Shown: positions 1-55,419 of the stretch, one piece after another
How the letters are laid out: each line of letters opens with the position of its first letter
How positions within the stretch are numbered: the first letter of the stretch is position 1
From: Polyangiaceae bacterium
Lineage (GTDB): Bacteria > Myxococcota_A > Polyangia > Polyangiales > Polyangiaceae
DNA: 64,000 nucleotides
Direction: 5' to 3'
Assembly: GCA_016712345.1 (NCBI GenBank)
Contig: JADJRH010000002.1
Coordinates: 200,466 to 264,465 of the forward strand
Position numbers and translations under genes: made by a program
The notes under the pieces: generated by a model
Database searches by the model: none
What the model saw: the letters and a program-made list of their open reading frames with translations, nothing else
Told to the model about the DNA's origin: nothing

Positions 1-2231
1 GTTGCTTTTCGAGCGAATGCCTGTTCAAAAAAACGCACGAGGTCGTCTCTGACGTTGGCATCAAACCGTTCGGCGGCGAGCACCAACTTGGCATCTGGGT
101 CAATGGCGCTTCCACCCGCAAATGTGGGGCGTGAACCGGCGATCATTTCGTGCAGGGTGACAGCGGCGCTCCAGCGATCGGCGGCAAAATCCCACCCATT
201 TCTACCCTCCGATCGAAGGTAAGGATCGCGGTAGACGGCAGTGCCCACCTGCACATTGGAAATGGGTAGACGCGAAAGCGAAAAGTCAAACAGGGTAAGG
301 TGGTCGGCCTGTTTGGTGGTTGAACCTACCCCCAGGTTGGCCGGTTTGATATCGCGATGAAGCACTTGGTGCTCTTCTAAATGTTCGATCGCTTGCAGCA
401 GGTCGTCGCCGTAGCGACTGGCTTCATCGAGCGAAACAGGCCCAAATCGAGCAATTTTTTGTTGGAGTGTCAACTCGCCGGCGAGGCTGAGCAGCAGACA
501 CTTTCTACCCTTCAGGGTAGGCTGACCGTGAAGCGCCACAATGCGCGCGTGCTTGTCGCGGTCGAGGTTTGAAAGGACAATTGCCTCGTCGGCGATGCGC
601 TCGTCATGGGTAGAGTCGAGCGCGATCTTGAGCGCAAACTCGCGCTCGTCTTTTAGCCTGCGCACGCGCAACACGCGCGCAGTCGCGCCGGTTCCAAGCA
701 GTTTGACCACCTGAAAGTCGCCGAGCCGCGCGTCTTTGGTCGCGGTGAGCGGATCGACCTCTTCAGGAGTGGACGCTTCATCAGGAGCGGTCGCCGCGTC
801 GAGCAAGATCTCCAACCACTCATCCACATCATCGGCTCGATTGACCGGTGCCACATCGGTGGCAAAGGTAAACACCTCGGCGATTTTGGGCGAAACGCCG
901 TCGTCTACCGTTCGGGGATCTAAGTAACGGGATCGTTCGAGCCGGCGATCAAGTTCTTCTGCCCGTTCAGCCGGCGCGCGGCCTGTGAACACAAAATAGG
1001 CGAGCGCTCCCAAGCTGAAAAGATCAGACTGAGTGCTGCGCGAAAGCGGGTTTTCACGCAGTTCGGGCGCTTGGTAAACCGCCCAATCTTCAAGTGCGAG
1101 AGCCGACCAGTGTTGGGTAAAGTCAACCCCTCCACCCGCTCCGAGTTGAAAATTGAAAAGGCGCGTGTCGATCTCGTTTGTATCGGGATGCCTGCGAACC
1201 AGCACCGATTGAGGCGAAACGGCGCCGTGAACAATGCTCTTTCGGTGGCAGTGAGAAAGCGCGCGCCCAACTTGCTCCACCATTGTCAACCGCTCCTCAA
1301 AGGGAAGCGTTGGGTTTTGGCGCATAAACGCGTCGAGCGGAACGCCCCCGGCAAAGTTGCCGAAAATGACAGTGGGACCGAGCGGCGCATCGCTCACATA
1401 ATCTGAAAGCTGGAGAACGTGCGGATGCTCGCGAACATCCCACAAAAGAGTGCTTTCACGTTCGGCCGCGCGACGAAGCTGCATCCGCCGATCCACACTC
1501 GCTTGTTGGGGCACGAGGTACACTCGCGCGCGGGTAGAAAAATTTTTATGACGATGGGTAGCTACGCGGTCTTGATATCCCGCTCCATCCACAAGCAGCT
1601 CCCCCAATTCATAACTGCCGGCCACGGCTCGACCCTTACGAGCGCGAATGCCCAGCGCTGAAAGGGCCTGCGCCACATCGTGCATGGTAGGTCGATCGAT
1701 CTTATCATTGCGATAGTTGTCAGGTGCACCCGGAAACTTATGAAACTGGACCGCCGCGGCGAGGTCTTTGCGAGTGACCACACGGATCATCCCATCGGCT
1801 TTCAGCCGAAGGTCGAGATCCGTGGCGCTCAAAAACACCAATGCCTCCACGTACGGGCATTTGGCCGGGTAGTTCATTTTCGACAAAAGGCGCGATTTAA
1901 GCACCTTTGCCTTGTAATTGCACAAGGACAGCGGCCCATCCATGTACACCGACCGGGCTTGACCCGGCGGTGTTCTATACCACTCGTGGTGATCACCTTC
2001 ATACCTGCCGGGGCCGCTTTTGATTTCGATCAAATACAGGGCTGAATAGCCCATGACCAACAGGTCAACTTCAAGCAGTCTACCCGTGGAAGGTTCAAGC
2101 AGCTCGGTGAGCGCCCACACATGAAAAGGATCGCTGTCGGGCAGAGCGGCGTAGGCAAATTCAAGCGCCTCGCGCTCGTGCGCATAAGGCGACTCTCCAA
2201 CAACGACTTTGCGAGCATTGGAAAGCGGCAT
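1..2231 (-). CDS. NERD-domain + tandem Ser/Thr protein-kinase-like protein (PglW-like architecture); 3' end runs off the left edge
   Basis: Own minus-strand translation from ATG at 2231: MPLSNARKVVVGESPYAHEREALEFAYAALPDSDPFHVWALTELLEPSTGRLLEVDLLVMGYSALYLIEIKSGPG, a NERD-type D..E.K core. A degenerate kinase-like domain follows (..HCHRKSIVHGAVSPQSVLV..), then a canonical one (VKLLGTGATARV, FALKI, HRDIKPANLG, LFDFSLS, GTAVYRDPYL). The frame stays open to position 1, so the ORF is missing from the track. Confidence 0.8.
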   Translation of the reverse strand, partial: MPLSNARKVVVGESPYAHEREALEFAYAALPDSDPFHVWALTELLEPSTGRLLEVDLLVMGYSALYLIEIKSGPGRYEGDHHEWYRTPPGQARSVYMDGPLSLCNYKAKVLKSRLLSKMNYPAKCPYVEALVFLSATDLDLRLKADGMIRVVTRKDLAAAVQFHKFPGAPDNYRNDKIDRPTMHDVAQALSALGIRARKGRAVAGSYELGELLVDGAGYQDRVATHRHKNFSTRARVYLVPQQASVDRRMQLRRAAERESTLLWDVREHPHVLQLSDYVSDAPLGPTVIFGNFAGGVPLDAFMRQNPTLPFEERLTMVEQVGRALSHCHRKSIVHGAVSPQSVLVRRHPDTNEIDTRLFNFQLGAGGGVDFTQHWSALALEDWAVYQAPELRENPLSRSTQSDLFSLGALAYFVFTGRAPAERAEELDRRLERSRYLDPRTVDDGVSPKIAEVFTFATDVAPVNRADDVDEWLEILLDAATAPDEASTPEEVDPLTATKDARLGDFQVVKLLGTGATARVLRVRRLKDEREFALKIALDSTHDERIADEAIVLSNLDRDKHARIVALHGQPTLKGRKCLLLSLAGELTLQQKIARFGPVSLDEASRYGDDLLQAIEHLEEHQVLHRDIKPANLGVGSTTKQADHLTLFDFSLSRLPISNVQVGTAVYRDPYLRSEGRNGWDFAADRWSAAVTLHEMIAGSRPTFAGGSAIDPDAKLVLAAERFDANVRDDLVRFFEQAFARKA

Positions 2232-2232
2232 G

Positions 2233-2925
2233 TCAGGTGGTGCCTCCCCTCGCAATCCGCGCATCTTCAGGTGCGGCGTCGTCGCTCACCAGGGCGCGTC
2301 CAATGGGAGTTTGACCTTCTACCGCGGTGCGCACGTCCGGGCTCTTGGTAAGATTTAACGCCAATGCCGACAAATAGGCGAGCTGACGATGGGAAGGTGG
2401 AGTGGCAATGACTGTGACTTGTTCGGCCCACGAAAGGCCCCCGTGAGAAGCAAACGCTTCAACAAGGGAAGCCACAGCCGAAGGGCCTGCAACCACCCAA
2501 CGGTCAATGGAAGACAGCGGACCCATGGCAACCGGGGTTAGCTTCACATCCCACGCGGCTGACCACGCTTGAAAAAGGGCCGAAATGCCGGCCGTAGCAG
2601 TAGATTCTACCGACGTTTGCCACAACTCTTCAGCATCTACAGGCAAAAGGCCCGGCCATTTGGCGCCGAACGCGTCGTCCTCGGCAACGGCTTTTTGAGC
2701 AAAGGTCGACCGCGCGCCAAACGCACCCGGCCATTCTGCATCGGCGTCGCGAAGCAAAAGGTCGAGCCGGTCGGCGGTGGTGAGGTCGCCCCGAAAGCCT
2801 GCCCAACGCGCATCTGCATCGGACCCAAAGCGACGACCGGTAGGTTTGCGCGCTTCGGCCCAATACAAGCCTGCGAGCGCAGTGCGGTAGAACGAGCGAA
2901 TTTCGTGGGTGGAAGGGGCTGCCAT
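2233..2925 (-). CDS. hypothetical protein, immediately upstream of and nearly abutting the NERD-kinase gene
   Basis: ORF 2233..3012. The internal ATG at 2925 (MAAPSTHEIRSFY..) is the likely start. Its TGA stop (2233-2235) lies 1 nt from the kinase ATG (2229-2231). No family recognised. Confidence 0.5.
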   Translation of the reverse strand: MAAPSTHEIRSFYRTALAGLYWAEARKPTGRRFGSDADARWAGFRGDLTTADRLDLLLRDADAEWPGAFGARSTFAQKAVAEDDAFGAKWPGLLPVDAEELWQTSVESTATAGISALFQAWSAAWDVKLTPVAMGPLSSIDRWVVAGPSAVASLVEAFASHGGLSWAEQVTVIATPPSHRQLAYLSALALNLTKSPDVRTAVEGQTPIGRALVSDDAAPEDARIARGGTT

Positions 2926-3082
2926 GGCGCGTTCGGGGCGAAGAATACACGATTCACGGCGTCTCAAGGCGCAGAATCGTCGGGGGGCGTTGCGGGGGGC
3001 GTTGCCCCTCAAGAACGAGTGCCCGTTTGAGGCCCTCTCTCGTGTGAGAGTTCAGCCGGACCAGACCTTCAAAGATCAAGCC

Positions 3083-3517
3083 ACCTAGAGCACCAATCGG
3101 TTTGATTCCGTAACCAAATGGATAGTTCACATGTGTACACAAACAGGCAGAAGCAAGGCAAGAAGGCCAGGCCCGAAGCTGCTACCCGGTGACAGACACC
3201 CAGTTCGGATCGCGTGGAGGGGGGCCCGCGGCCGACTTGCTCGGAGTTGGGGGTTAGGGAGCGAGTGACCTGTGCGCGTTCGAGCGGTGCGGTTTGGGCC
3301 CCATGCGCCACTGTCGGCGGGGAAGGGGCCCCGTCCGCGGGCGCTTGGGAAAAACCGTCACCGCGAGATGTGCACAGGTCAGGAGCGACCCGTGCGGGGG
3401 AGGAGGCGCGAGCCTCCTCCACTGGGAAAAGACTAGAGCACCTGCCGATATTTCTCGGCTTTCTCAAGTCACTAATCTTCTGATTTTACTCACGATTCAA
3501 ACCAATTGGTGTTCTAG
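3083..3517. repeat. GC-rich non-coding segment bounded by about 27-bp imperfect inverted repeats
   Basis: 3083-3109 cctagagcaccaatcggtttgattccg versus the reverse complement of 3492-3517, cctagaacaccaattggtttgaatcg (about 23/27 match). A third partial copy, ctagagcacc, sits at 3432-3441. ORFs inside look like GC shadow frames. Confidence 0.4.
3398..3419 (-). terminator. strong stem-loop (9-bp GC stem, 4-nt loop), possible terminator of the orphan toxin/immunity transcript
   Basis: ggaggaggc-gcga-gcctcctcc, about 95 nt downstream of the immunity gene stop on the minus strand. No U-tract follows. Confidence 0.3.
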
Positions 3518-4071
3518 GGAATGGTCACTTTTTCGAACAAAGCACCTGTGCATCCGGCCTGTTCCAAGCGGTTCTTCAACTCCATAGAAACGATCATCTC
3601 AACGTAAGATCCCCACAATCTGAAACAGTGAACTGGTGGTGGAATCTGACTTGTATCTAAGACTAATTTCGTGATTGACCGGTACTGACCTGCCAGATCA
3701 GCGCGGTGATCACTGGCTGTCCATTTTGTAAATCGAGATTGATTCTCATCCACGCATCGAAGAACCCGAAGGACGTTAACTGCCATCATCTGCGCGGACT
3801 CACCTAGTACAATCGGTAGGATCTGAACGTCGTCCCCGGCGACCTCTCTAAAAATGGTCGCCAACTTAGGTGTTACAATCGGGACTCCGAAACTTGTCAG
3901 CGAAAAATCTAACCTGGCTCCCCGGTGATGTATCGGAGCTGACAATGGGGTTGTCAAATGCAAAGCAATTCCGCCCTTCAGATCAGGTTCGGCACCGTCG
4001 GAAAGAGTAACTTCGCCGATGTGCCATCGGTTCGAACTTCGCATGTCGTCGAAAACTTGAAAGTACATCAT
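3514..4071 (-). CDS. polymorphic-toxin immunity protein (Imm11/DUF1629-like)
   Basis: 185-aa ORF. Its ATG overlaps the toxin stop in an ATGA (4068-4071). The C-terminus ..FRLWGSYVEMIVSMELKNRLEQAGCTGALFEKV resembles the DUF1629/Imm11 tail. Its position directly 3' of an RHS toxin tip supports the call. Confidence 0.6.
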   Translation of the reverse strand: MMYFQVFDDMRSSNRWHIGEVTLSDGAEPDLKGGIALHLTTPLSAPIHHRGARLDFSLTSFGVPIVTPKLATIFREVAGDDVQILPIVLGESAQMMAVNVLRVLRCVDENQSRFTKWTASDHRADLAGQYRSITKLVLDTSQIPPPVHCFRLWGSYVEMIVSMELKNRLEQAGCTGALFEKVTIP

Positions 4072-5552
4072 GGTTGAGTCAGTAATTTGTTAAGATCTGA
4101 ACCAGGCGTACTTAGCTCTTTGCTCATTGCGTCGAGTTCAGATCGAAAGGCTTCCGCGTACCTATCGCCCGAAAGCCCTCGGGTTGCGCGTTCCAAACGC
4201 TGGGACACTTCGCGATGATATGCTTCCGAATGGGGCCCGCGGTGTCCTGGGACTCGCACTTTATTAATTGCGTCATCGAGAGTCATTCCGGCCTTTTCGG
4301 CCATTCTTTCGAACCGCTGCGTCCACGGACCACCGTTGGATGACGAAACACGGTTCTTGTTTGTCATGATATGGTGCACCTGTCCATCCCCACCTTTTGG
4401 CGCCGACATCCATGCGTTAATCCCCGCCAAAATGTTTCCCGCACCACCCACAACGCCGACGGTAGAAACGGCAATTGCCGGCACTCCAACTGCCGCACCT
4501 ACCCCGGTCACGGTCGCCGCCCCGCCGAAGATCTCCCCACCAAGCGACGTGGCCGTGGTGTACAAACCGCCGCCAATCATCCCAAGCGCCTTGCCGCGCT
4601 CAAAGTACACCGAACGGCGCTTTACCAAGCCTTCCGCAAGGGCCGCTTCTTCGGCCACCCCTGCACCGGGTACAATGCCCAATAGTGCCCCACTAAACCC
4701 GCCCGCGATTGTCTGAAGAACGGGATGATTATACCACGGCTCGTCTTCCGCTTCCTCGTCAGGTTCGGCGGTTATGTCTTCCGATCCCGTGCTGTCCACG
4801 TCGGTTTTCGGCTCACCTACCCCGTGTTCCGCTTCTTTCTTAGGTTTGTCTTCCGTCGGCGGCCCGGCCTTTGATCCCGGTACAGAAATCTCCACATACC
4901 CACTCGGGTCCACGGGTAGGGAAGGCTCGCGCTTAGGTTCGCCGTCAAATCCGCTTGGGTCAGTATAGGTCAGCGGATTATTGAAAACGTAACTGTAGGG
5001 GTTCCACGCCTGACTGAATGTCCAATTCTGAATGATGGGATCAGTGCTCAGAAACCTACCCAACTTGGGATCAAACATTCGCCCTTTCATGTTGACTAAA
5101 CCGATCTCCCCATCGTCTTCATGCCCCGTAAATCCAAGCGAAATCGAATCTGGAAAGCTCGCAGGTATAGGGGCGCCCCACTCGGGATTTCTCCGCCGGC
5201 CGAAGGCGTCGTAACTGCGCCGCTCGGTGACCTTCCCATCGGCGTCTGTGAGTACGTCCACCGATCCCAAATGATCCGCGTGCACATACGTTGTGCCTGG
5301 TTGATTACCTCCAAGCGTGACAATCGCGATCACGCGTTCAGGCGAGTGCACATAAAATCGCTCGGTGAGCGCGTTCGCGGCGTCTTTGACACGTTCGTAC
5401 AGGTCGGCGAAATAAAGCGTTTCGTGCGTTGCGGTTAGATCGAGAGTGAACCGCGCTTGCCTGCGCAAAACGGGCTTGCCGTGCTTTGGCTCGCCTTCCT
5501 CGGGATGGTCAGAAACCAACGCGGCACCTAACAAGGTTGCCAAGCCGCCCAA
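4068..5552 (-). CDS. orphan RHS C-terminal cassette: RHS core end + Gly-rich linker + HNH/EndoVII (AHH-type) nuclease toxin
   Basis: Contains ..THETLYFADLYER..HADHLGSVDVLTDADGKVTERRSYDAFGRRR..GFTGHEDDGEIGLVNMKGRMFDPKLGRFLSTDP..NNPLTYTDPSGF, the RHS core terminus. The tip reads ..GQVHHIMTNKN..PGHRGPHSEAYHREV, an HH..N..H..H pattern. The first in-frame start is TTG and there is no ATG. Confidence 0.8.
   Translation of the reverse strand: MGGLATLLGAALVSDHPEEGEPKHGKPVLRRQARFTLDLTATHETLYFADLYERVKDAANALTERFYVHSPERVIAIVTLGGNQPGTTYVHADHLGSVDVLTDADGKVTERRSYDAFGRRRNPEWGAPIPASFPDSISLGFTGHEDDGEIGLVNMKGRMFDPKLGRFLSTDPIIQNWTFSQAWNPYSYVFNNPLTYTDPSGFDGEPKREPSLPVDPSGYVEISVPGSKAGPPTEDKPKKEAEHGVGEPKTDVDSTGSEDITAEPDEEAEDEPWYNHPVLQTIAGGFSGALLGIVPGAGVAEEAALAEGLVKRRSVYFERGKALGMIGGGLYTTATSLGGEIFGGAATVTGVGAAVGVPAIAVSTVGVVGGAGNILAGINAWMSAPKGGDGQVHHIMTNKNRVSSSNGGPWTQRFERMAEKAGMTLDDAINKVRVPGHRGPHSEAYHREVSQRLERATRGLSGDRYAEAFRSELDAMSKELSTPGSDLNKLLTQP
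4926..5436 (-). repeat. RHS-core homology block, inverted copy of 24446-24955
   Basis: Direct comparison: aaccgcaacgcacgaaacgctttatttcgccgacctgta.. is shared, and about 94 percent identity was seen over the first 96 nt aligned by eye. Identity collapses after ..gatttgacggcgaacc.aagcg.gagcc. Confidence 0.85.
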
Positions 5553-5735
5553 AAATGCGCGTGGGTGATTTTGGTGGGTAGACGACCCGCGAAGATTGTG
5601 CCCTTTTCATGATGGGCGCCTCGTTCTGGGGGCGTTCACGCTTTGTGGCGAGCCAGTCAACCGTTTCGCGTTGCGCGAAGGCCACCCAAGGGCAATGATG
5701 GGTAGGTTGCGGGGGATCTACCCATGGTTGAGGGG

Positions 5736-7622
5736 CTACTTCGGCTCCGGCGGATCGTAGATTTTCTTTACGTCGGCACCGCCCACGAACGCGTACGAGC
5801 CGGCGCTTCCATACCCATAAGCGACAATTCCAAAGGGCTTGTCACCTGACAGGTTGTGGGCGCCTTCTTGGAGCGGGCAGCGACGGGTTTCATACTCCAC
5901 ACCGGCGAGGTTGCCGGCCGGTTGGGTAGAACATCCACCCGGGGAGGTGCCGTCAATGGAGACGTTGGTGCCCACTTCGGCAACGATGACGACCCAATTT
6001 TGGTTCCACGAGCCGGGGGTTAGAATAACATATTCTGTGCGGTATTGGTCAACCGGTGGGAAGACGGTGAGGGAAGGATCGCCGATGTACGCACCGTCGC
6101 AGTATTGATTGCTGACAAGGATCTGACCAATCATGACGGGGGTGTCGGAGGTGACAACCACGTCGCCCTGGGTCCAGGTGGTTTTGACTTCACCCGGTTG
6201 GAGGGTGAATTGGTTGAATGGGGCGGGGAGGGTAGTGGTGACGTTGGTGACTTCGGCGGCGCCGACAAACCGGAGGATGTCAGGTTCTTTAAAGCCGCCC
6301 GTGGAACGCACGGGGCTGCGGGGAATGACGTAGTTTTTACCGACCGATTCCACCGGGAAGAGTTGGTCTTCAAGGTGGTCAAGGCAGCAGGTGTTGTCGG
6401 TTGTCCAACCGGGTGGGGTGGGAATGTCCACAACGCCGCCGGGAGCACCTGTGCTTTCTACCCCGGAGAATACGGCCACCGGCGCGTTGGCCGTGACAAG
6501 GGTACCTGACAAGTCGGCAATGGTTTTTGGATCGTCTTGGAATGTGCCGTCGTCCGTTTCAAGGTTGAGCACGTCAAACGGGCCAATGGTAAGACTGATG
6601 TCGCCGCCGGCTGGTGTGGCTGCAACGGGGGGATTTCCCTTGATTCGCCAGCTGGGTTTTACTTTGACAACGGTGTTGGGGGTGGTGCCGACAATGGTGA
6701 CATACGAGCGATCGAGAATGTTGAACCCGCCGAATTTGACGGGGTGGCCGGCGGGCCAGCCGATTACGCGGTAATAGGTTCCAAGTGCGTTGGTGGGTAG
6801 AAGAAGCGACGCATCGTTGGAATACGCGTTTTCAAAAACGTTGAATTGGTAGACAACGATGGGCGCGCTTGACTTAATGCGGAATGCGCGCGAGGAGAGG
6901 CAGGTTCCAGGGGAGGCGTAGTCGTTGGGTTGGACGCCGCAGTCAAGTTCACGCGTGGGTAGAACAAGGGCGTACAAGGCCCCGGGGTTGACCTCGGCGT
7001 CGGCGACTTTTGAAAGCTGGAGGGGTTGCCCGGGAGCGGCTTCGTTGATCTCAATGGAGACAACGGCTTTGGTTTGGCCGGCGTTGGAAAGCGCGACACC
7101 CCACGGTGCACTGGCCGGATCGTTGAAGCCGTCTTGTTGGTCAAGGTCAACCGCCCAAAATTCACACCCAACGTTGGAAGGTTGACCTTCTGCCACAACA
7201 CATGCGCTGATGCAGGCGCCGTTGGAACACGTTAAGCCGAGGGCCGGATCGCAGGTTTCTACCGGGGTGGTGCCGATTGTACCTTGGTCGGTGCACTGGT
7301 AGACATCATTGCCGAGGCAGGTTTTTCCACCGGGGTAACAGTCCACACAACCGAGCTTGGGAGCGCACGCTTTGGGGCATGTTTCAGGTGTGCCCGGCGT
7401 GCCGTCGCTGTTGCATGGGATGTAGGAGCCGGCGTTGCAAATGTCGCAAACATCGGAGTTGCCTCCGATGCCGCCGTTGCCGCCGTTGTTGGATGAGGTG
7501 GACGCCCCCGCGCCGCCGCCGCCTGTGGTGTTATTTGGAGCGGCGGAACAACCGAATTGAGATGGCAAAAGCGCCAAGAATAAAAGGGAAGAAATGGGTA
7601 GTAGGGTACGGCTCGAACGCAT
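5736..7622 (-). CDS. secreted Cys-rich lipoprotein, IgGFc-binding-protein-N-terminal-like domain (tentative)
   Basis: ORF 5736..7772. The likely start is the ATG at 7622, giving MRSSRTLLPISSLLFLALLPSQFGCSAAP (lipobox). A Gly/Cys-rich EGF-like stretch follows, then ..GCEFWAVDLDQQDG.. and ..VVYQFNVFENAYSNDASLLLPTNALGTYYRVIGW... Confidence 0.55.
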   Translation of the reverse strand: MRSSRTLLPISSLLFLALLPSQFGCSAAPNNTTGGGGAGASTSSNNGGNGGIGGNSDVCDICNAGSYIPCNSDGTPGTPETCPKACAPKLGCVDCYPGGKTCLGNDVYQCTDQGTIGTTPVETCDPALGLTCSNGACISACVVAEGQPSNVGCEFWAVDLDQQDGFNDPASAPWGVALSNAGQTKAVVSIEINEAAPGQPLQLSKVADAEVNPGALYALVLPTRELDCGVQPNDYASPGTCLSSRAFRIKSSAPIVVYQFNVFENAYSNDASLLLPTNALGTYYRVIGWPAGHPVKFGGFNILDRSYVTIVGTTPNTVVKVKPSWRIKGNPPVAATPAGGDISLTIGPFDVLNLETDDGTFQDDPKTIADLSGTLVTANAPVAVFSGVESTGAPGGVVDIPTPPGWTTDNTCCLDHLEDQLFPVESVGKNYVIPRSPVRSTGGFKEPDILRFVGAAEVTNVTTTLPAPFNQFTLQPGEVKTTWTQGDVVVTSDTPVMIGQILVSNQYCDGAYIGDPSLTVFPPVDQYRTEYVILTPGSWNQNWVVIVAEVGTNVSIDGTSPGGCSTQPAGNLAGVEYETRRCPLQEGAHNLSGDKPFGIVAYGYGSAGSYAFVGGADVKKIYDPPEPK

Positions 7623-7740
7623 GAGGGTAGAGTGCCCGAGTGCGCGTGAGAAGTCAGTACGAAACGACCGACGCAGTGCGGTAACTGAGACGTCTCGCAA
7701 CGACCTGAAACGCCTCGCGACGACCTGACATGTTGTACTA

Positions 7741-7892
7741 AACACGGAGGCACGGACTACACGGAGGTTCACGGAGATTTTCTATATTTCGGGCTGCAAT
7801 GGATGTCAGAAACGTTGTTTGGAACCGCGTTCTGCGAGCCGATTGCAGCCCAACAAACAAAGAAACTCCGTGTTCCTCCGTGATTCCGTGTT
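7741..7892. repeat. palindromic intergenic element with CACGGAG iteron arrays (copy A)
   Basis: Left arm aaCACGGAGgCACGGActaCACGGAGgttCACGGAGattttctatatttcGGGCTGCAATgg. The right arm is its imperfect complement: ccgATTGCAGCCCaacaaacaaagaaaCTCCGTGttcCTCCGTGattCCGTGttg. A related copy lies at 55146-55321. Confidence 0.75.
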
Positions 7893-7961
7893 GAAATGGA
7901 CGGTTCAGTTGGAGAAACGCACCAGGTTCTTGCCGGGTGGCGTCAGTTACCCAGAAGGCCC

Positions 7962-8669
7962 TTAATTGGAAGTGGCGGCGGTTTCAGAAGGAGGAGGCGA
8001 GGATGGGGAGGTGGAAGGTGTATTCAAAGCGTCATTGGAGATTTCCCAAACGAGTTGAGTGTTGCCCTGCGCTCCGGCGAAGCGAATACCAAACCACTTG
8101 GCTTTTGTGGAAATGGTGGGGCGACCCTCGGCTGTGACGCGGGGAAAACGAATGCGAAACGCCTGTCGAAACACGTTATTGTAGGGGAAATAAGTGCGTT
8201 CAATGGCGTTTGGTTTTTTAATGAGTTGAATTTCTTCAGGCGCTGTTTCGTTGCCTGTGTCGTCGATGAGCCGAACGATCCATGCGCTGTCGGGGCGGGT
8301 CAGATCGTTGTAGCGGCGCTCGCCGCCGTAGATGGCCACGAAAAACTGGTGGCGGCGTTTGGTTTCATCGAGCGCTTTTTCAAGGAGTTTTTTGCGCTCA
8401 TCAATGGTGAGGCGGTAGTCCTGAACGTAGCGGACTGTGTACGCCCAGCGAAAATCCCACGATTCAAACGTGGCTGTCGCTGTGAGGAAGTTGTCGAGTT
8501 CGCTCAGCGAAAACAGGCGTTCGGTGCGGGTCCAATGGCGAAGCACCGATTCATAATCGGTGGCGACATATTCACGCGGGCCTTCTGCGAGCGATACCAA
8601 CTGCGGTGCGCAACCGCACGCAGCAAATGCTGACACGGCGACGGTAAGCGCGGTGGAGAGGCGAAACAC
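7962..8669 (-). CDS. hypothetical lipoprotein
   Basis: GTG start. The N-terminus FRLSTALTVAVSAFAACGC has a lipobox. The C-terminal tail is Pro/Ser-rich. Confidence 0.55.
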   Translation of the reverse strand: MFRLSTALTVAVSAFAACGCAPQLVSLAEGPREYVATDYESVLRHWTRTERLFSLSELDNFLTATATFESWDFRWAYTVRYVQDYRLTIDERKKLLEKALDETKRRHQFFVAIYGGERRYNDLTRPDSAWIVRLIDDTGNETAPEEIQLIKKPNAIERTYFPYNNVFRQAFRIRFPRVTAEGRPTISTKAKWFGIRFAGAQGNTQLVWEISNDALNTPSTSPSSPPPSETAATSN

Positions 8670-8681
8670 GGCCCGACCTTA

Positions 8682-9431
8682 TCACGTGTCGTGGCCGGCT
8701 CGTTCAGCGAGTCGCACGTCGGTTTCAAGCCCGGTGAGGGCGGCTGTGTAACCGTCGCGTGCCGCTGTGCGCATTTCCATGAGAAGAGCGATTCGATGCA
8801 GGCGCGTTTCGGCGAGATCCGCCCGCGCCATCGCGTCGCGAACCACTTGAACTTGGCCTTGCCTGAGTTTGGTGGCGAGCGATCCAACGGCGATTGCCGC
8901 GATGAGGAGCACAACGAGCCCGATTCCGAGGAGGAGCGCAACGGCAAGTCCGCTGCCTTCACCTGCGAAAAGCGCTCGAAACGCGGCGATTGCGGCGAGC
9001 ACAACTCCGCCGATGAGGAGCAAAAGTGAACTGATGACACCGAGTCTTTCAGTCCACGCGGCGCGCGCGAGTTGGCGCATGGCGACGTTGCGCCAAAAGT
9101 CGGCTTCGCTGTCGAGGCGTTTGGCGAGCGATGCGAGAGCGTCGTCGGTGGACAGCTCCGGCAAGTCGGCTTGGTGAAGCAACTCAGCGGGGATGCGCGC
9201 TTCATCTCCGGCATCGGCGCTGAGCGCATCACCCACTTTTCCAAGGCCCGAACGAACGCGATTGCCAACGGCGGTCGCCACCGGCTTCACACCGGCGGCG
9301 GCCTTTTCTCCAAGTTCGGCGGCCGTGGAGCGCGCGCCTTGGAGCGCTTTTTTGGCATTGTGTACACTTGATTTTTCGTCGTCCGAGTCGGCGATTGGTG
9401 ACTTGCCCCAAGTGCTTTGTTTTTCGCTCAT
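8682..9431 (-). CDS. hypothetical membrane protein (two central TM helices)
   Basis: ATG at 9431, 3 nt after the dehydrogenase stop. Hydrophobic segments are GVISSLLLLIGGVVLAAIAAF and LAVALLLGIGLVVLLIAAIAV. Confidence 0.55.
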   Translation of the reverse strand: MSEKQSTWGKSPIADSDDEKSSVHNAKKALQGARSTAAELGEKAAAGVKPVATAVGNRVRSGLGKVGDALSADAGDEARIPAELLHQADLPELSTDDALASLAKRLDSEADFWRNVAMRQLARAAWTERLGVISSLLLLIGGVVLAAIAAFRALFAGEGSGLAVALLLGIGLVVLLIAAIAVGSLATKLRQGQVQVVRDAMARADLAETRLHRIALLMEMRTAARDGYTAALTGLETDVRLAERAGHDT

Positions 9432-9434
9432 GGA

Positions 9435-10514
9435 TTAACGCGACGAAGAGACGATTTTGGATCCTGGGGCACCTGCGCGGGCAAGCTTTTCTTCAACCAT
9501 GAGATCGGCCACGCGATACGTGGGAGTGAGTGTACTCATGCTTCGCTCGGCGATCTCGTGGATTGTGTCGTAGATCTTGAGGGTGCGGTCGCGCGAGATC
9601 GTGGCGTTGTACCCAACCACTTCTTGAGCAACGTTGATGAGGCCGCCCGCGTTGATGGCGTAATCGGGCGCGTACAAAATGCCTCGTTGATTGAGGTCGT
9701 CGCCGTGGCGAGGCTCGTGGAGCTGATTGTTGGCCGCGCCGGCCACGATTTTGGCTTTGATGCGCGGTACAGTTTCATCGTTGATGGCCGAGCCGAGCGC
9801 GCATGGGGCGAGCACGTCACATTCAATTTCAAAGATGTGGTCGAGCGGCACGATGTCGGCGCCAAACTCGCGCTGCGCGCGTTCGCTCTTGAGCGGATCC
9901 ACATCGGCCACGCTGAGCTTTGCGCCGCACGCCGCCAGCTCTTTGCAGAGGTGGTAACCCACGTGTCCAACGCCCTGAACCGCCACGTGCAGGCCTTCGA
10001 GTGAAGAGCGACCGAGTTTGAGTTGGGCGCACGCTTCAATTCCCCTTCGAACGCCGAGCGCTGTGAACGATGAGGGATCGCCCGAACCTCCATTTTTCAC
10101 ATCGACACCGGTCACGTGTTTTGTTTCGTGACGAATCAGCTCCATGTCTTCAAGGCCGGTGCCCGAGTCTTCGGCCGTGATGTACCGACCCCCAAGCGCA
10201 TCTACAAATCGCCCGAAAGCAAGGAAAAGAGCGGCCCTGTCAAACACCGGAGCGGCGGGTCGCAAGAGTACACTTTTGCCACCGCCGTGAGGTACACCTG
10301 CGAGCGCGGCCTTGTAAGTCATGCCGCGCGCGAGACGCAGCGCGTCAACCAATGCCTCCTCTTCTCGGGCGTATGCGAGGAAGCGACAACCTCCAAGCGA
10401 AGGGCCCAATCGAGTGTCGTGAATGGCAACAATGGCGCGCATTCCGCTCGCTGGATCTCGGCGAAAATGCACTTCGCCGTAATCGTAGGAGGCGAGGTGT
10501 GAAAAGACGTCCAT
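9435..10514 (-). CDS. Glu/Leu/Phe/Val dehydrogenase family (leucine/phenylalanine dehydrogenase-like)
   Basis: From the ATG at 10514: MDVFSHLASYDYGEVHFRRDPASGMRAIVAIHDTRLGPSLGGCRFL..GMTYKAALAGVPHGGGKSVLL and the Rossmann motif VAVQGVGHVGYHL. The track ORF extends upstream to 10667. Confidence 0.85.
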   Translation of the reverse strand: MDVFSHLASYDYGEVHFRRDPASGMRAIVAIHDTRLGPSLGGCRFLAYAREEEALVDALRLARGMTYKAALAGVPHGGGKSVLLRPAAPVFDRAALFLAFGRFVDALGGRYITAEDSGTGLEDMELIRHETKHVTGVDVKNGGSGDPSSFTALGVRRGIEACAQLKLGRSSLEGLHVAVQGVGHVGYHLCKELAACGAKLSVADVDPLKSERAQREFGADIVPLDHIFEIECDVLAPCALGSAINDETVPRIKAKIVAGAANNQLHEPRHGDDLNQRGILYAPDYAINAGGLINVAQEVVGYNATISRDRTLKIYDTIHEIAERSMSTLTPTYRVADLMVEEKLARAGAPGSKIVSSSR

Positions 10515-10728
10515 GGGTTTCCCTGTGCGTTGTGTGAGAGCGACTTGTTTGCGTGCCTCGTTACCACAGTGCGTCGTTTGGTGCGGTGGTTTGAGTGCGC
10601 AAAAAGTCTTTTTTTCAGGGCTCCGCGCGTCGGCGGAAGAGCAGCCGGTGATATAAGTGAACGTCATCGATCAACGCGTGGGCACTCCGCGCGGTGAGCA
10701 AAAAACTTAGAAGAAGGGTTCATCGGCG

Positions 10729-12582
10729 ATGCGGACCAAAATCATTCCGAGCGCACTGTTCCTGACCGCTCTCGCAGCGGTCGGATGCGGTGACGGCGGG
10801 GAGAGTTCCACGGGAGGAACCACCTCCACGACCCCGTCCAAACCACCCACCGTTGTCGATATTGTTGTCGACGCCAATCGCGATGGGAAACTCGATCCGG
10901 CCGATCCCGCCGATCAAGACAAAGAAAACGAATGGAGCGTCGACAGCGGCGCGTCGTTTTTGGCAAACCTCGATGACGACGACGCGGACAAGTTTCGCGA
11001 CGTAGACGACCAGATCATCAACGGGCCGGATGATGAACTCGACCTGGCGAAGATGCAGCTCGTCGCGTGGCCCGACGCTCCCGACGGTGCGCTTGGTGTA
11101 CTCCATATCGATCCGATGAGCGCCCAGAACATTCGCCTCTGGAAAAAGGGGCTCGACGGCGCTTGGTGGCTCGTCGGTGGCAACGTCGGTCCCTGCAACG
11201 AAGTGGATCCGGCGTGCACGGTGACACCCGACGTAACGTTTCCAATCGAAGAAGTGCGCGCGGGGCTCACGCTCGGGATCGAAGCGCGTTTCTTCCGTCG
11301 CTCACTTGCGCCTGAGGCGTGGACGGGCATTGTGCAGCTCGGCTATCAGGTAAACGACAAAGACGGTGCGCCGATCACCGACGACAACATTCCCGATGGG
11401 CTTGATCAGGCCAAAATTCGCGTTGCCCCGTGGATGTTGTTTGGCAACCTTTCTCCTTTTGATCGCGTTTGGTCCAACAACGTAATGCCGGCATTTGTGT
11501 CGGGTCTTTCAACGCTGTCGACGGAAGCGGGCGTTACCTACAAGAAGATCACCAACTGGCAGGATCACTGGACTCAAGACTATTTCCAAACGGGGTACAC
11601 AACGATCCCGGTTGAAAACGGCGCCGTTCAAGGCATGCGCATCGCCAACGCAAGGCCGTGGGGTCGCTGCGACTCGCCTTCGTGTTGGCCGATCAACTGG
11701 CTCAAAAAAGGGTATTTGTCGCCCGGAAACGGTGTGATCGAGATCTACAACAAGCCCAATACGGGTTCGACGTACGACTCGCATGGCAACCACGATCTGC
11801 TGCCTCCGTATGAAAACGGAGAATCAAAATATCCCTTTGGTCGCATCGCAATCGGCTCAGGTGTACTCAAAGAAACCAAAGATTTTTACGCTGCGCAGGA
11901 GGTTCAAGGCCCGCCGATCATCGTGAAAACGTCGTGGCTCTACGTGGGTCACATCGACGAAGTATTCAGTTATGTGCCCGCGAACACGCCGCGCGGGTGG
12001 AAGCTTTTGGTAGGTTCACCCAAGCTCGCAAAGTCCATGCTTGAGGCGGCTCAAGCGGCCGGACACGGCGCGGTGACCATGTTTAAAGGGCAAAAGTGGT
12101 ACACCGAAAATGGCAGTCTCATAGACGCCGAAGTTTCAATTGACGAGGTGCTCGCCAATCAAGATCTGCTTGCTGCGTCGCAAGAAGCGCAAGGCGAGAT
12201 CGACGACATGATTGCCCAACTAAAAGAAGAGGTGGGTCTGGCGGACGACGAGATCGTCGAAATGCCGTATCTGCTCCAAGACCTCTTTGGGCAGAAGGTC
12301 GCCTTTAACCCGGGCACGGCCAACATGCTTGTTGTGGCCGACCACTTGGGCATTCCCAAACCGTGGGGCCCCGTTATCGACGGTGCCGACATTTTCGAAA
12401 CCGATCTTGAAGAGCGCCTTGGAGCACCGGGCCAAAACCTCGGATCCGACGGCAACGGTCTTATCGTTCACTTCATCGACGACTGGGAGTGGTACCACGC
12501 GCTCGACGGTGAGGTGCATTGCGGCTCCAACGTGGATAGCGTGCCGCCCGCGGATCAAACTTGGTGGAAGGTGTTGAAATGA
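10729..12582 (+). CDS. eukaryote-type protein-arginine deiminase (PAD, PF03068-like) with lipoprotein signal
   Basis: MRTKIIPSALFLTALAAVGCGD carries a lipobox. Matches to PAD active-site blocks are WTQDYFQTGY, ..SWLYVGHIDEVFSYVPANTPRGWKLLVGSPK.., and the C-terminal ..DDWEWYHALDGEVHCGSN with the catalytic Cys. Confidence 0.88.
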   Translation: MRTKIIPSALFLTALAAVGCGDGGESSTGGTTSTTPSKPPTVVDIVVDANRDGKLDPADPADQDKENEWSVDSGASFLANLDDDDADKFRDVDDQIINGPDDELDLAKMQLVAWPDAPDGALGVLHIDPMSAQNIRLWKKGLDGAWWLVGGNVGPCNEVDPACTVTPDVTFPIEEVRAGLTLGIEARFFRRSLAPEAWTGIVQLGYQVNDKDGAPITDDNIPDGLDQAKIRVAPWMLFGNLSPFDRVWSNNVMPAFVSGLSTLSTEAGVTYKKITNWQDHWTQDYFQTGYTTIPVENGAVQGMRIANARPWGRCDSPSCWPINWLKKGYLSPGNGVIEIYNKPNTGSTYDSHGNHDLLPPYENGESKYPFGRIAIGSGVLKETKDFYAAQEVQGPPIIVKTSWLYVGHIDEVFSYVPANTPRGWKLLVGSPKLAKSMLEAAQAAGHGAVTMFKGQKWYTENGSLIDAEVSIDEVLANQDLLAASQEAQGEIDDMIAQLKEEVGLADDEIVEMPYLLQDLFGQKVAFNPGTANMLVVADHLGIPKPWGPVIDGADIFETDLEERLGAPGQNLGSDGNGLIVHFIDDWEWYHALDGEVHCGSNVDSVPPADQTWWKVLK

Positions 12583-13511
12583 GCCGCAACAAAACGTCAC
12601 TTTGGGGTCTTGTGTTGGGAGCCGCCGTGGTTGCCCTTTCGGGTAGCGCGCGCGCCGACGGCATTGCACTCAGTGCGGCTGAACTTCCTTCACAAGTAAA
12701 GCAATCGCTCGCCAAAGATGTGGCGGCGTACAAAGCCGCGCACGCGGCCGATTTTAAGCCTGTGCGCGACGTGCAGGGCATTAAGCCCGATGTGTACAAA
12801 GCCTATCGAAACCCGCAGCCCGTTGCGGTGCTCGAGCTGAAACGCCTCGGTGCGGGCGCGCTCTTGCCCATGCTTGACGTGCTTGCTCTCGACGCCCCCG
12901 CGCTGACGTTGAGCGACAAAGAAAAAACAGCGTACATCGTCGGCCTGCTTGAAGCTTCGAGCGCGCTTCGCGATGCCCGCAGTGGGCCTGTGTACACAGC
13001 GATCTTTGAGGCGAAAAACAAGCCGAATGATGTGCTGCGTGCCGCGGCGGAGGCTCTCGGGCGCGTGTGCGGCGATGCCGAACTTGGCACCCTCAAGAAA
13101 CACACCGCCGCAGGTGATGCGTTGCGTACACATGCTATTCGCGGTCTGTCGCAGTGCCGTCGCAAAGAAGGTGTGGAGCACCTCGCAACACTTCTCGGCG
13201 CCGCATCCGATGCCGCTTCGGCTGAGCCCATCGCCGACGCTCTCGGGCTCGCGTCGTCGAGCTGGGCGTGGAAAGCCATGGGAGCCAAAAGCGCGGCGGC
13301 AGCCAAAGACGTTCAGCAAATTGCCGCGAAGGCGCTCATCACTTCGTTCGTGAAGCACAAAGACGCGCGCCCGGCGGCTCGAAAAGCCCTCAAGTTGGTT
13401 GAGTCTCCCGATGCGGTCACGCTCATCGCGGCGGCTCGAACAAGCGCCGACGCAGTCACACAGAGCGCGCTTGACGAACTCGCCAAAGCCGTCACCCCCG
13501 CTACCAAGTAG
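12579..13511 (+). CDS. secreted alpha-helical (HEAT/ARM-like) repeat protein, translationally coupled to PAD
   Basis: The ATG at 12579 overlaps the PAD TGA in an ATGA. Signal peptide MSRNKTSLWGLVLGAAVVALSGSARA. The body is Ala/Leu-rich helical repeats. Confidence 0.55.
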   Translation: MSRNKTSLWGLVLGAAVVALSGSARADGIALSAAELPSQVKQSLAKDVAAYKAAHAADFKPVRDVQGIKPDVYKAYRNPQPVAVLELKRLGAGALLPMLDVLALDAPALTLSDKEKTAYIVGLLEASSALRDARSGPVYTAIFEAKNKPNDVLRAAAEALGRVCGDAELGTLKKHTAAGDALRTHAIRGLSQCRRKEGVEHLATLLGAASDAASAEPIADALGLASSSWAWKAMGAKSAAAAKDVQQIAAKALITSFVKHKDARPAARKALKLVESPDAVTLIAAARTSADAVTQSALDELAKAVTPATK

Positions 13512-13525
13512 ATAACGGCCAATAG

Positions 13526-13552
13526 GCACAGCGCGTATTCTTTGCGCTGTGC
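13526..13552 (+). terminator. hairpin downstream of 12579-13511 (possible terminator)
   Basis: gcacagcgc-gtattcttt-gcgctgtgc, a 9-bp stem 15 nt after the stop. No clear U-tract. Confidence 0.3.
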
Positions 13553-13828
13553 TCAGCCCCAATCCTGATCAGTTAAGACAAGAAAGCCTTCTCTCTGTGA
13601 GGTTTGGCGGCTCCTGCCGCCTGGTAGCTACCTGCCGACGGCCCCGCCGAATTCACGTTTTCGTCGCGGCTGCATTCGCAGGAAACACGTTATGGAGAAG
13701 GCTTTCGCGCCGCGCTTTTCGCTTTCTCGCTCGGCAGCGGGCAAGGGTGTCCGAAACGTCGCGACGACCCTGACTCCGGGCTTCGCTGAAACGTTTCGAC
13801 TGCTTAAGATCCGACCTATGAACCCGGA

Positions 13829-15951: not shown

Positions 15952-15983
15952 AGCATCGCCGCCCCGGCGTGGTTGTGTTTGCT

Positions 15984-16637
15984 CTACAGCATGAAACTTA
16001 CGCCGACGGTCACGAACGGAATGCCGAGGCGCATGGTGAGCGTGATCTTGTCGCGGAAGTGGAAGCGCCCACCCACCTCGAACATCGGCTCAACGAAGAT
16101 GGCGTCGTAGCCGCGATCCCCTACGAAAAACCCGTTACTGTGCGGCACAAATCCAACTTCGGCGAACACGCTCCACTTCTTGTGCAAAAAGAAGTTCCAC
16201 TGTGCGCCGATGGGAAACCAAAACGAATATTCGTCGGGATAACAATATCCGCAGTTGGTAATATCGAGCCCAAACGTGATGCCGATGGTGTTGTTGAGCT
16301 TGGGAATCACCGGGTCGACAATTTCAATCGTGGCGCGAAAACCAACGCCCGCGTTGAAGTAGTAGCGATTGAGATCGCGCCCGTATCGAAACGTATTTCC
16401 CCACGGTGACAGTGTCCCGTGCGGTTCCAACTCAACCCGGTAGTCGGGGTGGTCACTTGGATTGCGAATGATCATTTGCGCGGCGGCTTCACTCGCCGAG
16501 AACAACGCAACACCGGCGGCGGCCGACCCAAGCAGTACAGCGACTCGACGTTGGTAGGTTCGCATGAGCAATGTTCCTATCGCGACATCGCGGCGCAAAG
16601 CAACCGCGATGGTTGCCCTGATAGTGCCGGCGCGCAT
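15984..16637 (-). CDS. hypothetical outer-membrane beta-barrel-like protein
   Basis: Signal peptide ..LLGSAAAGVALFSASEAAAQ. Aromatic-rich alternating strands with a C-terminal ..GVSFML. Confidence 0.5.
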   Translation of the reverse strand: MRAGTIRATIAVALRRDVAIGTLLMRTYQRRVAVLLGSAAAGVALFSASEAAAQMIIRNPSDHPDYRVELEPHGTLSPWGNTFRYGRDLNRYYFNAGVGFRATIEIVDPVIPKLNNTIGITFGLDITNCGYCYPDEYSFWFPIGAQWNFFLHKKWSVFAEVGFVPHSNGFFVGDRGYDAIFVEPMFEVGGRFHFRDKITLTMRLGIPFVTVGVSFML

Positions 16638-16793
16638 GATTGAAAGGTCGCGAATTTGGGAGGCTTAGTTATTTGCGCACGAAAAGCGCGCGACATGCAC
16701 AGTGCTTGAACCGGGCGGCGCTACGTCTGCCCACGCAACCGCAATGTGTACACCATCTGCGAGGCGACAACGGCGGGACTTGGCTCTGTGATC

Positions 16794-54330: not shown

Positions 54331-55050
54331 ATGCACACAACCACACGATGGCTTTCGTTCTGCGCTCTGTTTTCCCTTGCGCCGCTGGCCGCGGTGGCGT
54401 GCGGAGACGGTACGCCGGACGCAAACACTCCACCCCAACCAACGGCTGAACCCACGGCGAGTGCGTCGGCCGGTCCCACAGCGGCGCCCACCGCTGTTCC
54501 CACGGCGGAGCCCACGGCCACGCCAACCGCCGAGCCAACAGCGTCCGCAAGTGCGTCGGCACCTGTCGACAAGCCCAAGTCGGGTCGCCCGCCGGTGCTC
54601 CTGGCAGATGCCAAGTCCATCACCGACACATTCGGTTTTTCGCCGGGTGCCAAGCTTGAACTTGGTGACAAAGAAATTGCCACTCTTCGCATTCCCGAAG
54701 GGGCTCTTTCGCAAGCCACTGTTGTCACATTCGCTATCGACACCAAGTGCAAAACCACAGGTGTCGTTACCGGCAAACTCTACAAGATCACACCTACCAT
54801 CCCACCCGCAGCAACTCCCGCGTCGGTTCCTTCAAACAACGGCGCCCCGTACACGCTGATCCTCCCCGGAGTTAAAAAGCGTGATTTGAACCTGGCAATT
54901 GGCACGTACGCCAAAGATGCAAAAGGAAACGAGGCAATTGTTTGGAAGATTCTCGGGCCCGCCAAAGTAGACGAGTCGGGGATTTTTGAATTTCACCTCG
55001 ATACTCTCCCGGACGGTTGTGTACACCTGACAAACAAGCCGCCCACCTGA
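54331..55050 (+). CDS. hypothetical lipoprotein with PTAEPTA-type tandem low-complexity repeats
   Basis: Lipobox ..LAPLAAVACGDG, followed by PTAEPTASASAGPTAAPTAVPTAEPTATPTAEPTASASASAP. Confidence 0.6.
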   Translation: MHTTTRWLSFCALFSLAPLAAVACGDGTPDANTPPQPTAEPTASASAGPTAAPTAVPTAEPTATPTAEPTASASASAPVDKPKSGRPPVLLADAKSITDTFGFSPGAKLELGDKEIATLRIPEGALSQATVVTFAIDTKCKTTGVVTGKLYKITPTIPPAATPASVPSNNGAPYTLILPGVKKRDLNLAIGTYAKDAKGNEAIVWKILGPAKVDESGIFEFHLDTLPDGCVHLTNKPPT

Positions 55051-55145
55051 CCTCCTGGGTCTCGTGGGTAGCTGGCAGCCCCAGAGCGACGGCTGAAGCG
55101 TCACGCCAAGACCTGAAGCGCCTGGATGCCTGTGACGTCTCTTTC

Positions 55146-55321
55146 ACCACGGAATCACGGAGAACACAGAACACACGGAGTTTTTTTGTTTCTTGGGCTG
55201 CAATGGGTACACATCATCCGTGATCCCAACCTGACAGGGGATCGGTCAGGTGGTGCGAGACGATTGCAGCCTAAAATACAAAAAACTCCGTGGATCTCCG
55301 TGATCTCCGTGCCTCTGTGTT
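55146..55321. repeat. palindromic intergenic element with CACGGAG iteron arrays (copy B)
   Basis: cacCACGGAatCACGGAGaaCACAGAacaCACGGAGtttttttgtttcttGGGCTGCAATggg ...variable loop... cgATTGCAGCCtaaaatacaaaaaaCTCCGTGgatCTCCGTGatCTCCGTGcCTCTGTGttg. It shares arms with 7741-7892, but the central loop differs. Confidence 0.75.
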
Positions 55322-55419
55322 GATTACGAAGTATCAGGAATCGAGACGTCACAGGTCATTGTGGGCGAGCTTAGCGCTGCGGAGCGCGTTTCCCGGCCGC
55401 TTTGTGAGATGCTTGGCGC

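Follow-up and report, generated by a model that had tools for sequence, protein, structure and literature searches.

We analyzed a 64-kb stretch of contig JADJRH010000002.1, which belongs to a Polyangiaceae (Myxococcota) metagenome-assembled genome (MAG), and we refer to this whole stretch as the window (57.5% GC). Two of its intergenic spacers each contain a long palindrome whose arms are arrays of the heptamer CACGGAG; we call them copy A and copy B (Table 1). Each copy lies between two co-directional genes, 50 to 90 nt past the stop codon of one and approximately 100 to 120 nt ahead of the start codon of the next. The genes flanking copy A are unrelated to those flanking copy B, indicating that the copies were not duplicated along with genes.

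The left arm of copy A comprises four units on the plus strand (CACGGAG at 7743, CACGGAC at 7751, CACGGAG at 7760, and CACGGAG at 7770) at spacings of 8, 9, and 10 nt. Its right arm reads CTCCGTG at 7866, CTCCGTG at 7876, and TTCCGTG at 7884, followed by the flank TTGAAA, which on the minus strand is TTTCAA-CACGGAA-T-CACGGAG-GAA-CACGGAG. The left units of copy B are CACGGAA at 55148, CACGGAG at 55156, CACAGAA at 55165, and CACGGAG at 55174. Measured between the innermost exact units, the centers span 89 nt in copy A and 105 nt in copy B, and both start and finish with A/T-rich runs of 13 to 14 nt. Between these A/T-rich spacers is an inner stem common to both copies (GGGCTGCAAT/ATTGCAGCC), which encloses unrelated loops. 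Outside the arrays of copy A, positions 7683 to 7694 pair with 7898 to 7910, a weaker counterpart of the outer stem of copy B.

In local alignments, the reverse complement of copy A (7902 to 7661) was identical to copy B (55136 to 55392) at 181 of 270 positions (67%; score = 125), compared with a score of 92 for the same-strand alignment and no more than 30 for shuffled sequences. In the window, the two copies point in opposite directions; with respect to their co-directional flanking genes, they therefore share one polarity. Homology beyond the arrays is on the side facing the next gene and includes CAGGTCGTYGCGAGRCGTYT-like repeats. Between the arrays of copy A and its downstream gene, these repeats make up two tandem 20-mers (7688 to 7727) that are identical at 17 of 20 positions; the 20-mers include AGACGTCT, which recurs in the outer stems of copy B (GTGACGTCTC and GAGACGTCAC). 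Alignment of the loops revealed no significant similarity between the copies in either orientation, and we rejected an inversion of the center.

The window has 16 exact CACGGAG sites, ten of them inside the two elements, and arrays of at least three units (≤1 mismatch) number three, compared with 0.04 per shuffled window. Searches with the stem, the arrays, and an arm model (R1; see below) found no third copy within the 64 kb. When folded as RNA, copies A and B reached -72.9 and -89.5 kcal/mol (z = -7.8 and -9.2), which none of 200 shuffled sequences equaled. This bears out the long hairpin that had been proposed in an initial annotation made from the sequence alone. The same annotation had correctly described three to four CACGGAG units per arm at 8- to 10-nt spacing, A/T-rich spacers, an inner stem with a loop of about 40 nt, and a second copy with the same arms and a different loop. 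It had, however, given the unit as approximately 150 nt, while the homologous unit is approximately 250 nt (7661 to 7915 in copy A and 55119 to 55392 in copy B), and it had overlooked the opposite orientation of the copies.

A wider family with the same arms

The arms recur in other organisms. A 19-base arm pattern matched 39 metagenome loci, all of them intergenic, and about half also had the opposite array, which the pattern did not demand. A pattern of three CTCCGTG units matched at least 120 viral-contig loci. Among the matches listed for viral contigs, a GT(T/G)AA flank followed 72 of 143 CTCCGTG arrays, and 23 CTCCGTG arrays had exact inverted partner arrays. Arrays of the variant CTCTGTG behaved in the same way. 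Control heptamers, reversed and shuffled, matched 41 and 44 loci, with no palindromes and no common flank; these matches were period-9 tandem repeats of the coding type. From all matches listed, we collected 66 nonredundant palindromes with centers of 10 to 123 nt, in which A+T made up 57%, compared with 41% for their loci. A typical member reads (A-rich)-TT(C/A)AC-[CACGGAG-N1-3]x3 - centre - [CTCCGTG-N1-3]x3-GT(G/T)AA-(T-rich), with A-rich sequence on the 5' side and T-rich sequence on the 3' side.

Using 48 arms of viral-contig palindromes, we built R1 as a sequence-only model to which the window contributed nothing. R1 matched exactly the four arms in the window (E = 4e-7 to 7e-3) and nothing further in 179 kb. 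Because a model derived from viral contigs matches all four arms, the window copies are bona fide members, and the profile also separates true members from coding tandem repeats. An extra GC-rich stem-loop in the center is peculiar to the window copies. The pair is thus part of a dispersed family with members in other organisms, as the initial annotation had supposed, and is not a chance pair of palindromes. A search with the inner stem did not lead to the family: in a scan of one genome per species, a set that did not include the source MAG, the pattern GGGCTGCAATGG..GATTGCAGCC had five matches in unrelated taxa, all without CACGGAG arrays, and we treated these as chance.

Members were found in termite-gut Treponema, in clusters resembling gene transfer agents (GTAs), and in many uncultured phage-like contigs; taxonomy was established for a few loci only, and many of the viral-contig matches, being from related phages, are not independent. 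The STAS protein encoded by one metagenome locus (L027) shares its 90% cluster with Treponema sp. MAG proteins. Two other loci, L110 and L089, are GTA-like clusters of tail and baseplate genes with nearest named homologs in Stellaceae (Alphaproteobacteria) MAGs, and they have three to five elements per 12 to 14 kb between co-directional structural genes. An element in L110 has no counterpart in the homologous spacer of L089, these genomes being too diverged for exact boundaries, and a Stellaceae MAG locus (L379) with a 75% identical tail protein has zero elements. Based on simple open reading frame (ORF) calls for the metagenome loci, 0 of about 14 members with both neighbors called lie between divergent genes, and members at Treponema-type loci begin 10 to 25 nt past stop codons.

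In uncultured phage contigs of 55 to 60% GC, single unpaired arrays occur on the coding strand. Because they are read in different frames in different genes, these arrays are conserved at the nucleotide level. Examples are the single TTTAAC-CACGGAG-GA-CACGGAG-AG-CACGGAG arrays of L083 (3393-3417, 5744-5768, and 8690-8714; also found in L092 and L105), which fall within long ORFs or at their ends and translate as TTENTESTEG in one case and NHGGHGEHGG in another. We considered ribosome-loading sites as an explanation for the single arrays and rejected it: a start codon and ORF followed within 3 to 18 nt in 19 of 92 cases, compared with 11 of 92 on the other strand.

Other repeats were seen around family members. 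Comparison of L110 (5980-6420) with L089 (5110-5315) revealed about 290 nt extra in L110, composed of several unrelated hairpin modules in series. There, a second palindrome made of tandem units of the CGCAAAGGACG/CGTCCTCCGCG type adjoins the CACGGAG palindrome, which suggests a wider class of palindromes with tandem-array arms. At further loci (L028, L030, and L036; L035; L022 and L031; L015; L029), the intergenic sequence adjoining members often contains other short-period tandem arrays, including GGCGTTA heptamers, GAGGTT hexamers, CGTGAT units, and 15-nt GGAATAGTTACTAAT units.

The element is absent from the loci that we compared in relatives of the source genome. In three of them (L007, L008, and L010), the spacer orthologous to that of copy A is 47 bp long and lacks the element, compared with 339 bp in the window. 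There were no arrays of at least three units and no R1 matches in approximately 174 kb of relatives' loci, some of which overlap. At the site of copy B, the lipoprotein and glycoside hydrolase (GH) genes of one relative (L377) are separated by a minus-strand gene of 242 aa that the window lacks. The CACGGAG element accounts for two long and otherwise puzzling intergenic spacers of this genome. The nearest relatives (L006, L007, L172, L376, and L377), with proteins 77 to 89% identical, have a GC content of 69 to 71%, and the source lineage seems to be strongly shifted in base composition; a further locus (L173), with a GH gene that is 71% identical, is at 57% GC. Both element sites (7962-12582 and 55050-55420) are rearranged compared with L007 and L377. 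To the right of copy A (7962-12582), the PAD-LeuDH gene pair is inverted relative to L007, and a cation-ATPase block is missing.

We found no established family to which the repeat belongs. Rfam 15 gave no match at the gathering score for the window or 20 family loci and none at E <= 10 for either copy, and neither copy A nor a typical element matched any plasmid by blastn. Literature searches by sequence and keyword returned primers and unrelated papers and no description of the family, which may nevertheless have been described; survey papers on repetitive extragenic palindromic (REP) sequences do not mention the motif.

Pairing of the arms and readings of the repeat

The heptamers are nearly invariant, and positions 1 to 3, 5, and 6 are Watson-Crick paired with the opposite arm in at least 96% of cases. 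In contrast, the 1- to 3-nt spacers between units are complementary at 57 of 179 positions (32%, compared with 25% by chance). Where both partners of a unit pair depart from the consensus, 23 of 33 pairs are compensatory (expected, 5.4; at most 13 in 1000 shuffles). In L090, for instance, one element pairs CACGGAT with ATCCGTG, and a CACGGAG-type palindrome is on the same contig. Mismatches at position 4 are G.T in 19 cases and A.C in 24, or about equal. Judged from these sequences, the co-variation favors pairing or arm-to-arm homogenization over the specificity of a single protein, and it would still be compatible with sequence-specific recognition.

We put at about 50% the probability that each locus holds a copy of a dispersed, non-autonomous palindromic repeat, of the REPIN or MITE (miniature inverted-repeat transposable element) type, that was gained in the lineage and lies downstream of genes. 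Its arm is a module of approximately 35 nt, made up of the flank TT(C/A)AC and three or four CACGGAG units at a period of 8 to 10 nt, and two arms are inverted about a variable A/T-rich center. Because the element is absent in relatives, patchy across phyla, and present in several copies with unrelated centers per contig, the family was probably acquired and expanded separately in each lineage, in the manner of REPINs and MITEs, and not passed down as a signal universal to the hosts. Copies lie in spacers 3' of genes, and the two in the window share one orientation with respect to transcription. If transcribed, the element would fold into a very stable interrupted hairpin. Judging from position and structure only, its most likely effect would be to end the upstream transcript or to protect its 3' end.

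The repeat is REP/REPIN-like and MITE-like in behavior but lacks the defining features of both, namely, a tagged hairpin unit and a target duplication. It resembles REPs, BIMEs, and REPINs in being extragenic and dispersed, in consisting of two inverted modules that form a long imperfect hairpin with a variable linker, in lying downstream of genes, in its patchiness between lineages, and in the proposed roles in termination or mRNA 3' protection. Both window copies are extragenic inverted doublets that can form a long hairpin, as REPINs are. A REP unit is a short hairpin tagged with GTAG or CGTC (PMC3733652). Whereas the REP module is itself a 20- to 40-nt hairpin with an unpaired tag, the module here is a non-palindromic heptamer array with a TTCAC flank. 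In both copies, a CGTC does lie 9 nt beyond the first unit, yet no short stem adjoins it, and the initial view that this is not a classical REP sequence stands. REPINs also come with a cognate RAYT (Y1 transposase) gene flanked by the repeats and number tens to hundreds per genome; we saw no RAYT gene here, with 64 kb of the source genome in view.

Like bacterial MITEs (Correia/NEMIS, ERIC, and RUP), the repeat is noncoding, intergenic, and hairpin-forming, falls within 90 to 270 bp, has a variable interior and conserved terminal inverted repeats of about 35 bp, and is present or absent by lineage among relatives. Its arms of about 35 nt are kept between copies and across organisms. In contrast to MITEs, even copies from a single contig have unrelated interiors, the ends are internally repetitive, and we found neither a target-site duplication nor a parent insertion sequence with the same ends. 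The earlier suggestion of a MITE-like element therefore fits the terminal inverted repeats, the position, and the hairpin and fails on the target-site duplication. Another modular repeat is the BOX element of Streptococcus pneumoniae, with a central tandem boxB (45 nt) and outer pairing modules that are unique sequences. BOX is similarly intergenic, with tandem subunits within a structure whose outer modules pair into a long stem; in contrast, the tandem units of the CACGGAG element are 7 nt long and are themselves the pairing arms.

Several results weigh against a mobile palindromic repeat that acts on transcript ends. There is no target-site duplication at either window copy, and the flanks are mirror images (TTCAC...GTGAA and A-rich...T-rich) rather than direct repeats. 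No transposase that could serve as an autonomous partner was recognized in the longest ORFs between 10 opposite-arm pairs 0.6 to 4 kb apart, which were judged by inspection, in fetched loci only and with no Pfam scan. The relatives with empty sites are 12 GC points off with rearranged neighborhoods, and the spacers of the window could not be aligned with their orthologous spacers; owing to this divergence, no exact insertion boundary can be drawn. Just two copies are in view in the 64 kb of the source genome covered. They are only 67% identical and have unrelated loops, and either the spread was not recent or only the arms are constrained. A terminator consensus scan called neither copy, the loops of 41 and 58 nt being too long, and by eye the tails past the stem (UGUUUAGU and UGUUGAUU) are moderately U-rich, with five U in 8 nt. 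Finally, across 15 elements, the gene-sense strand folded no better than the antisense strand.

A more speculative extension, which we consider rather unlikely, is that TTCAC-(CACGGAG)x3 is the recognition site of a putative trans-acting machine able to cross between phyla, perhaps a new type of transposase or another nucleic-acid enzyme, and possibly phage-borne. If so, its native working sites would be the single phage arrays, with the palindromes at the ends of bacterial genes as its footprints or hitchhikers. Such a machine would account for the recurrence of one hexamer core, spacing, and flank in Spirochaetota, Myxococcota, alphaproteobacteria-like GTA clusters, and uncultured phages, and for the lack of arrays in close relatives of each carrier. 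The intergenic regions of bacteria are shaped by dispersed palindromic repeats, of which REPs, for one, have been associated with mRNA ends and with rearrangements; for most such families, no spreading agent is known. The signature of the present family (three heptamers at fixed spacing with a 5-nt flank) is specific and searchable, crosses phyla, and also occurs in phage contigs. What reads or copies the repeat can therefore be tested by phylogenetic profiling and binding assays.

The alternatives differ in how they account for the arms. It is possible, although we think it improbable, that the palindromes are host-selected cis-acting RNA elements, that is, intercistronic hairpins that work as a terminator, an attenuator, or a processing or stabilizing site. 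Helices of CACGGA(G)/(C)UCCGUG would then be read by a conserved RNA-binding or double-strand-specific factor, and the copies would be useful rather than spreading. The compensatory changes between opposite units are consistent with such a role, and the nearly equal G.T and A.C mismatches at position 4 argue against it. Both window copies have the same polarity with respect to co-directional genes and lie 50 to 90 nt past a stop codon and 100 to 120 nt ahead of the next start codon, but a shared polarity of two copies is expected 50% of the time by chance. In both window copies, folding energy slightly favors the sense over the antisense strand (-103.0 versus -98.8 and -135.0 versus -122.4 kcal/mol), but no such preference shows across the 15 elements. 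Support also comes from the proximity of Treponema-type members to stop codons, from the avoidance of divergent spacers, and from the members between structural genes of GTA-like operons. However, a patchy distribution in which close relatives lack the element is hard to square with a conserved factor, and there is no Rfam family. Intrinsic (bidirectional) terminators share with the repeat a hairpin shortly past the stop codon and, for low-GC members, A-rich 5' and T-rich 3' flanks. They differ in that the CACGGAG stem is 3 to 5 times longer with regular internal loops and a loop of 10 to 120 nt, the family has a specific conserved sequence, and the U-tract is weak in the window copies.

We regard as doubtful a double-stranded DNA binding array, in which a multimeric protein would occupy the heptamers of both arms on successive helical turns and bend the A/T-rich center for a regulatory or nucleoid-organizing purpose. 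Near invariance of the heptamers next to spacers that are not complementary (57/179), the 8- to 10-bp period, the conserved TTCAC/GTGAA flank, and the single unpaired arrays in phage contigs would all be expected of such an array, and arm co-variation is also expected of two copies of one binding site. Still, a period of 8 to 9 bp places successive sites on different faces of the helix, and the CACGGAT-type and CACGGAG-type palindromes of L090 better suit pairing or homogenization. Divergent spacers, where promoters would lie, are avoided, and we found no candidate DNA-binding gene linked to copy A or B. Plasmid centromeres, iteron sites, and phage P1 pac, with its 4 + 3 hexamers, are single-copy sites beside their cognate genes, with repeats that do not pair into hairpins. 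They have in common with the CACGGAG elements short repeats at near-helical spacing that flank an A/T-rich region; in contrast, the CACGGAG family has many copies and no linked gene.

An independent small-RNA gene with its own promoter is very improbable. The strong and significant fold and the intergenic position would suit one, but a consensus scan found no sigma-70-like promoter in or near either copy, no Rfam family matched, the loops are unrelated between copies, and both strands fold almost equally well. The initial proposal of a small-RNA or terminator family is thus retained in part: position and hairpin fit a repeat that could act as a 3' hairpin, and a free-standing small RNA, with no promoter-like site and no Rfam match, does not fit.

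An origin of replication or transfer, or else a site of recombination (attP-like or attC-like), is scarcely credible: arrays flanking an A/T-rich region and a central inverted repeat are superficially origin-like or pac-like, but no rep, integrase, or relaxase gene adjoins either copy, members lie between phage structural genes, several copies may occur within 10 to 14 kb of one contig, and by eye the ends are unlike attC R''/R' boxes. Iteron origins have direct repeats of about 17 to 22 bp in one orientation, beside an A/T-rich unwinding region and a rep gene. The present units are 7 nt long in inverted arrays, and the copies are 47 kb apart between genes for secreted proteins, so the earlier idea of an iteron array does not hold in the replication-origin sense.

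We also considered other readings of the flanks (attC, a metbox/CRE-like AGACGTCT, IHF, sigma-54, and sigma-70), and found no convincing match by eye or by scan. A CsrA sponge, suggested by the GGA motifs, was dismissed by reasoning, since the motifs are paired in the hairpin. To our knowledge, alphaproteobacteria are mostly without CsrA, which we also counted against a sponge.

Neighboring genes and other features of the window

Table 1. Features of the two palindromic elements and the genes that flank them
Feature	Position	Strand	Basis
Copy A, entire homologous unit	7661..7915	- (sense with flanking genes)	Alignment of reverse complement of A with copy B
Copy A, tandem 20-mers x2, AGACGTCTCGCAACGACCTG / AAACGCCTCGCGACGACCTG	7688..7727		Partly common to copy B
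Copy A, array of 4 units	7743..7776	+	R1 match 7743-7767, E = 2.3e-4
Copy A, A/T-rich spacer ATTTTCTATATTTC, pairs with 7852-7865	7777-7790 (14 nt)		Sequence and fold
Copy A, inner hairpin: GGGCTGCAAT 7791-7800, loop 41 nt, ATTGCAGCCC 7842-7851	7791..7851		Sequence and fold
Copy A, second A/T-rich spacer AACAAACAAAGAAA	7852-7865		Sequence
Copy A, right array	7866..7896	-	R1 match 7896-7866, E = 7e-3, TTCAC-type flank included
Copy B, entire homologous unit	55119..55392	+ (sense with flanking genes)	Alignment with reverse complement of A
Copy B, outer stem, left half CCTGTGACGTCTC	55129..55141		Perfect 13-bp inverted repeat
Copy B, flank TTTCAC and 4-unit array	55142..55180	+	R1 match 55142-55170, E = 1.4e-4
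Copy B, inner hairpin: GGGCTGCAAT 55195-55204, loop 58 nt, ATTGCAGCCT 55263-55272	55195..55272		Last pair G.T
Copy B, right array: CTCCGTG 55286, 55296, 55305 and CTCTGTG 55313	55286..55319	-	R1 match 55319-55294, E = 4e-7
Copy B, outer stem, right half GAGACGTCACAGG	55343..55355		Pairs with 55129-55141
Gene downstream of copy A, IgGFc-binding domain protein; start codon 7620-7622	5736..7622	-	Pfam PF17517, E = 6e-61
Gene upstream of copy A, 235 aa, function unknown; stop codon 7962-7964	7962..8669	-	Homology
Gene upstream of copy B, 239-aa lipoprotein-like protein	54331..55050	+	Signal peptide, lipobox-like AAVAC; 61% identical homolog in L377
Gene downstream of copy B, GH-like protein, 478 aa	55420..56856	+	Identical to P0170 (NCBI MAG, Polyangiaceae); weak Pfam GH42 match

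The neighbors of the two copies encode secreted proteins. The 235-aa gene upstream of copy A is 77% identical to a gene in L007 (1140-1880) and 76% identical to one in L006 (7527-8276). We set the start of the IgGFc-binding-domain gene by aligning its N terminus by eye with the L007 ortholog. The leucine dehydrogenase of the window is 100% identical to an NCBI MAG protein. Adjoining the secreted IgGFc-binding-domain protein (5736-7622, minus strand) is a 494-aa protein carrying an AHH nuclease domain at its C terminus (4068-5552, minus strand), and this gene pair may be a polymorphic-toxin locus.

The initial annotation had placed copy A exactly at the border of a block rich in the word GGGTAGA. 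This was inaccurate, as the nearest GGGTAGA (7625-7631) is 110 nt to the left of the arrays. Counting both strands, the window contains 47 GGGTAGA sites, compared with 2.1 expected; most are intragenic, and they have no longer consensus. The sites are spread over regions such as 201-7631 and 17398-52799, with zero in 7632-17397 and 52800-64000. GGGTAGA resembles a word that is over-represented throughout the genome, as Chi and uptake sequences are, and that is missing from some regions.

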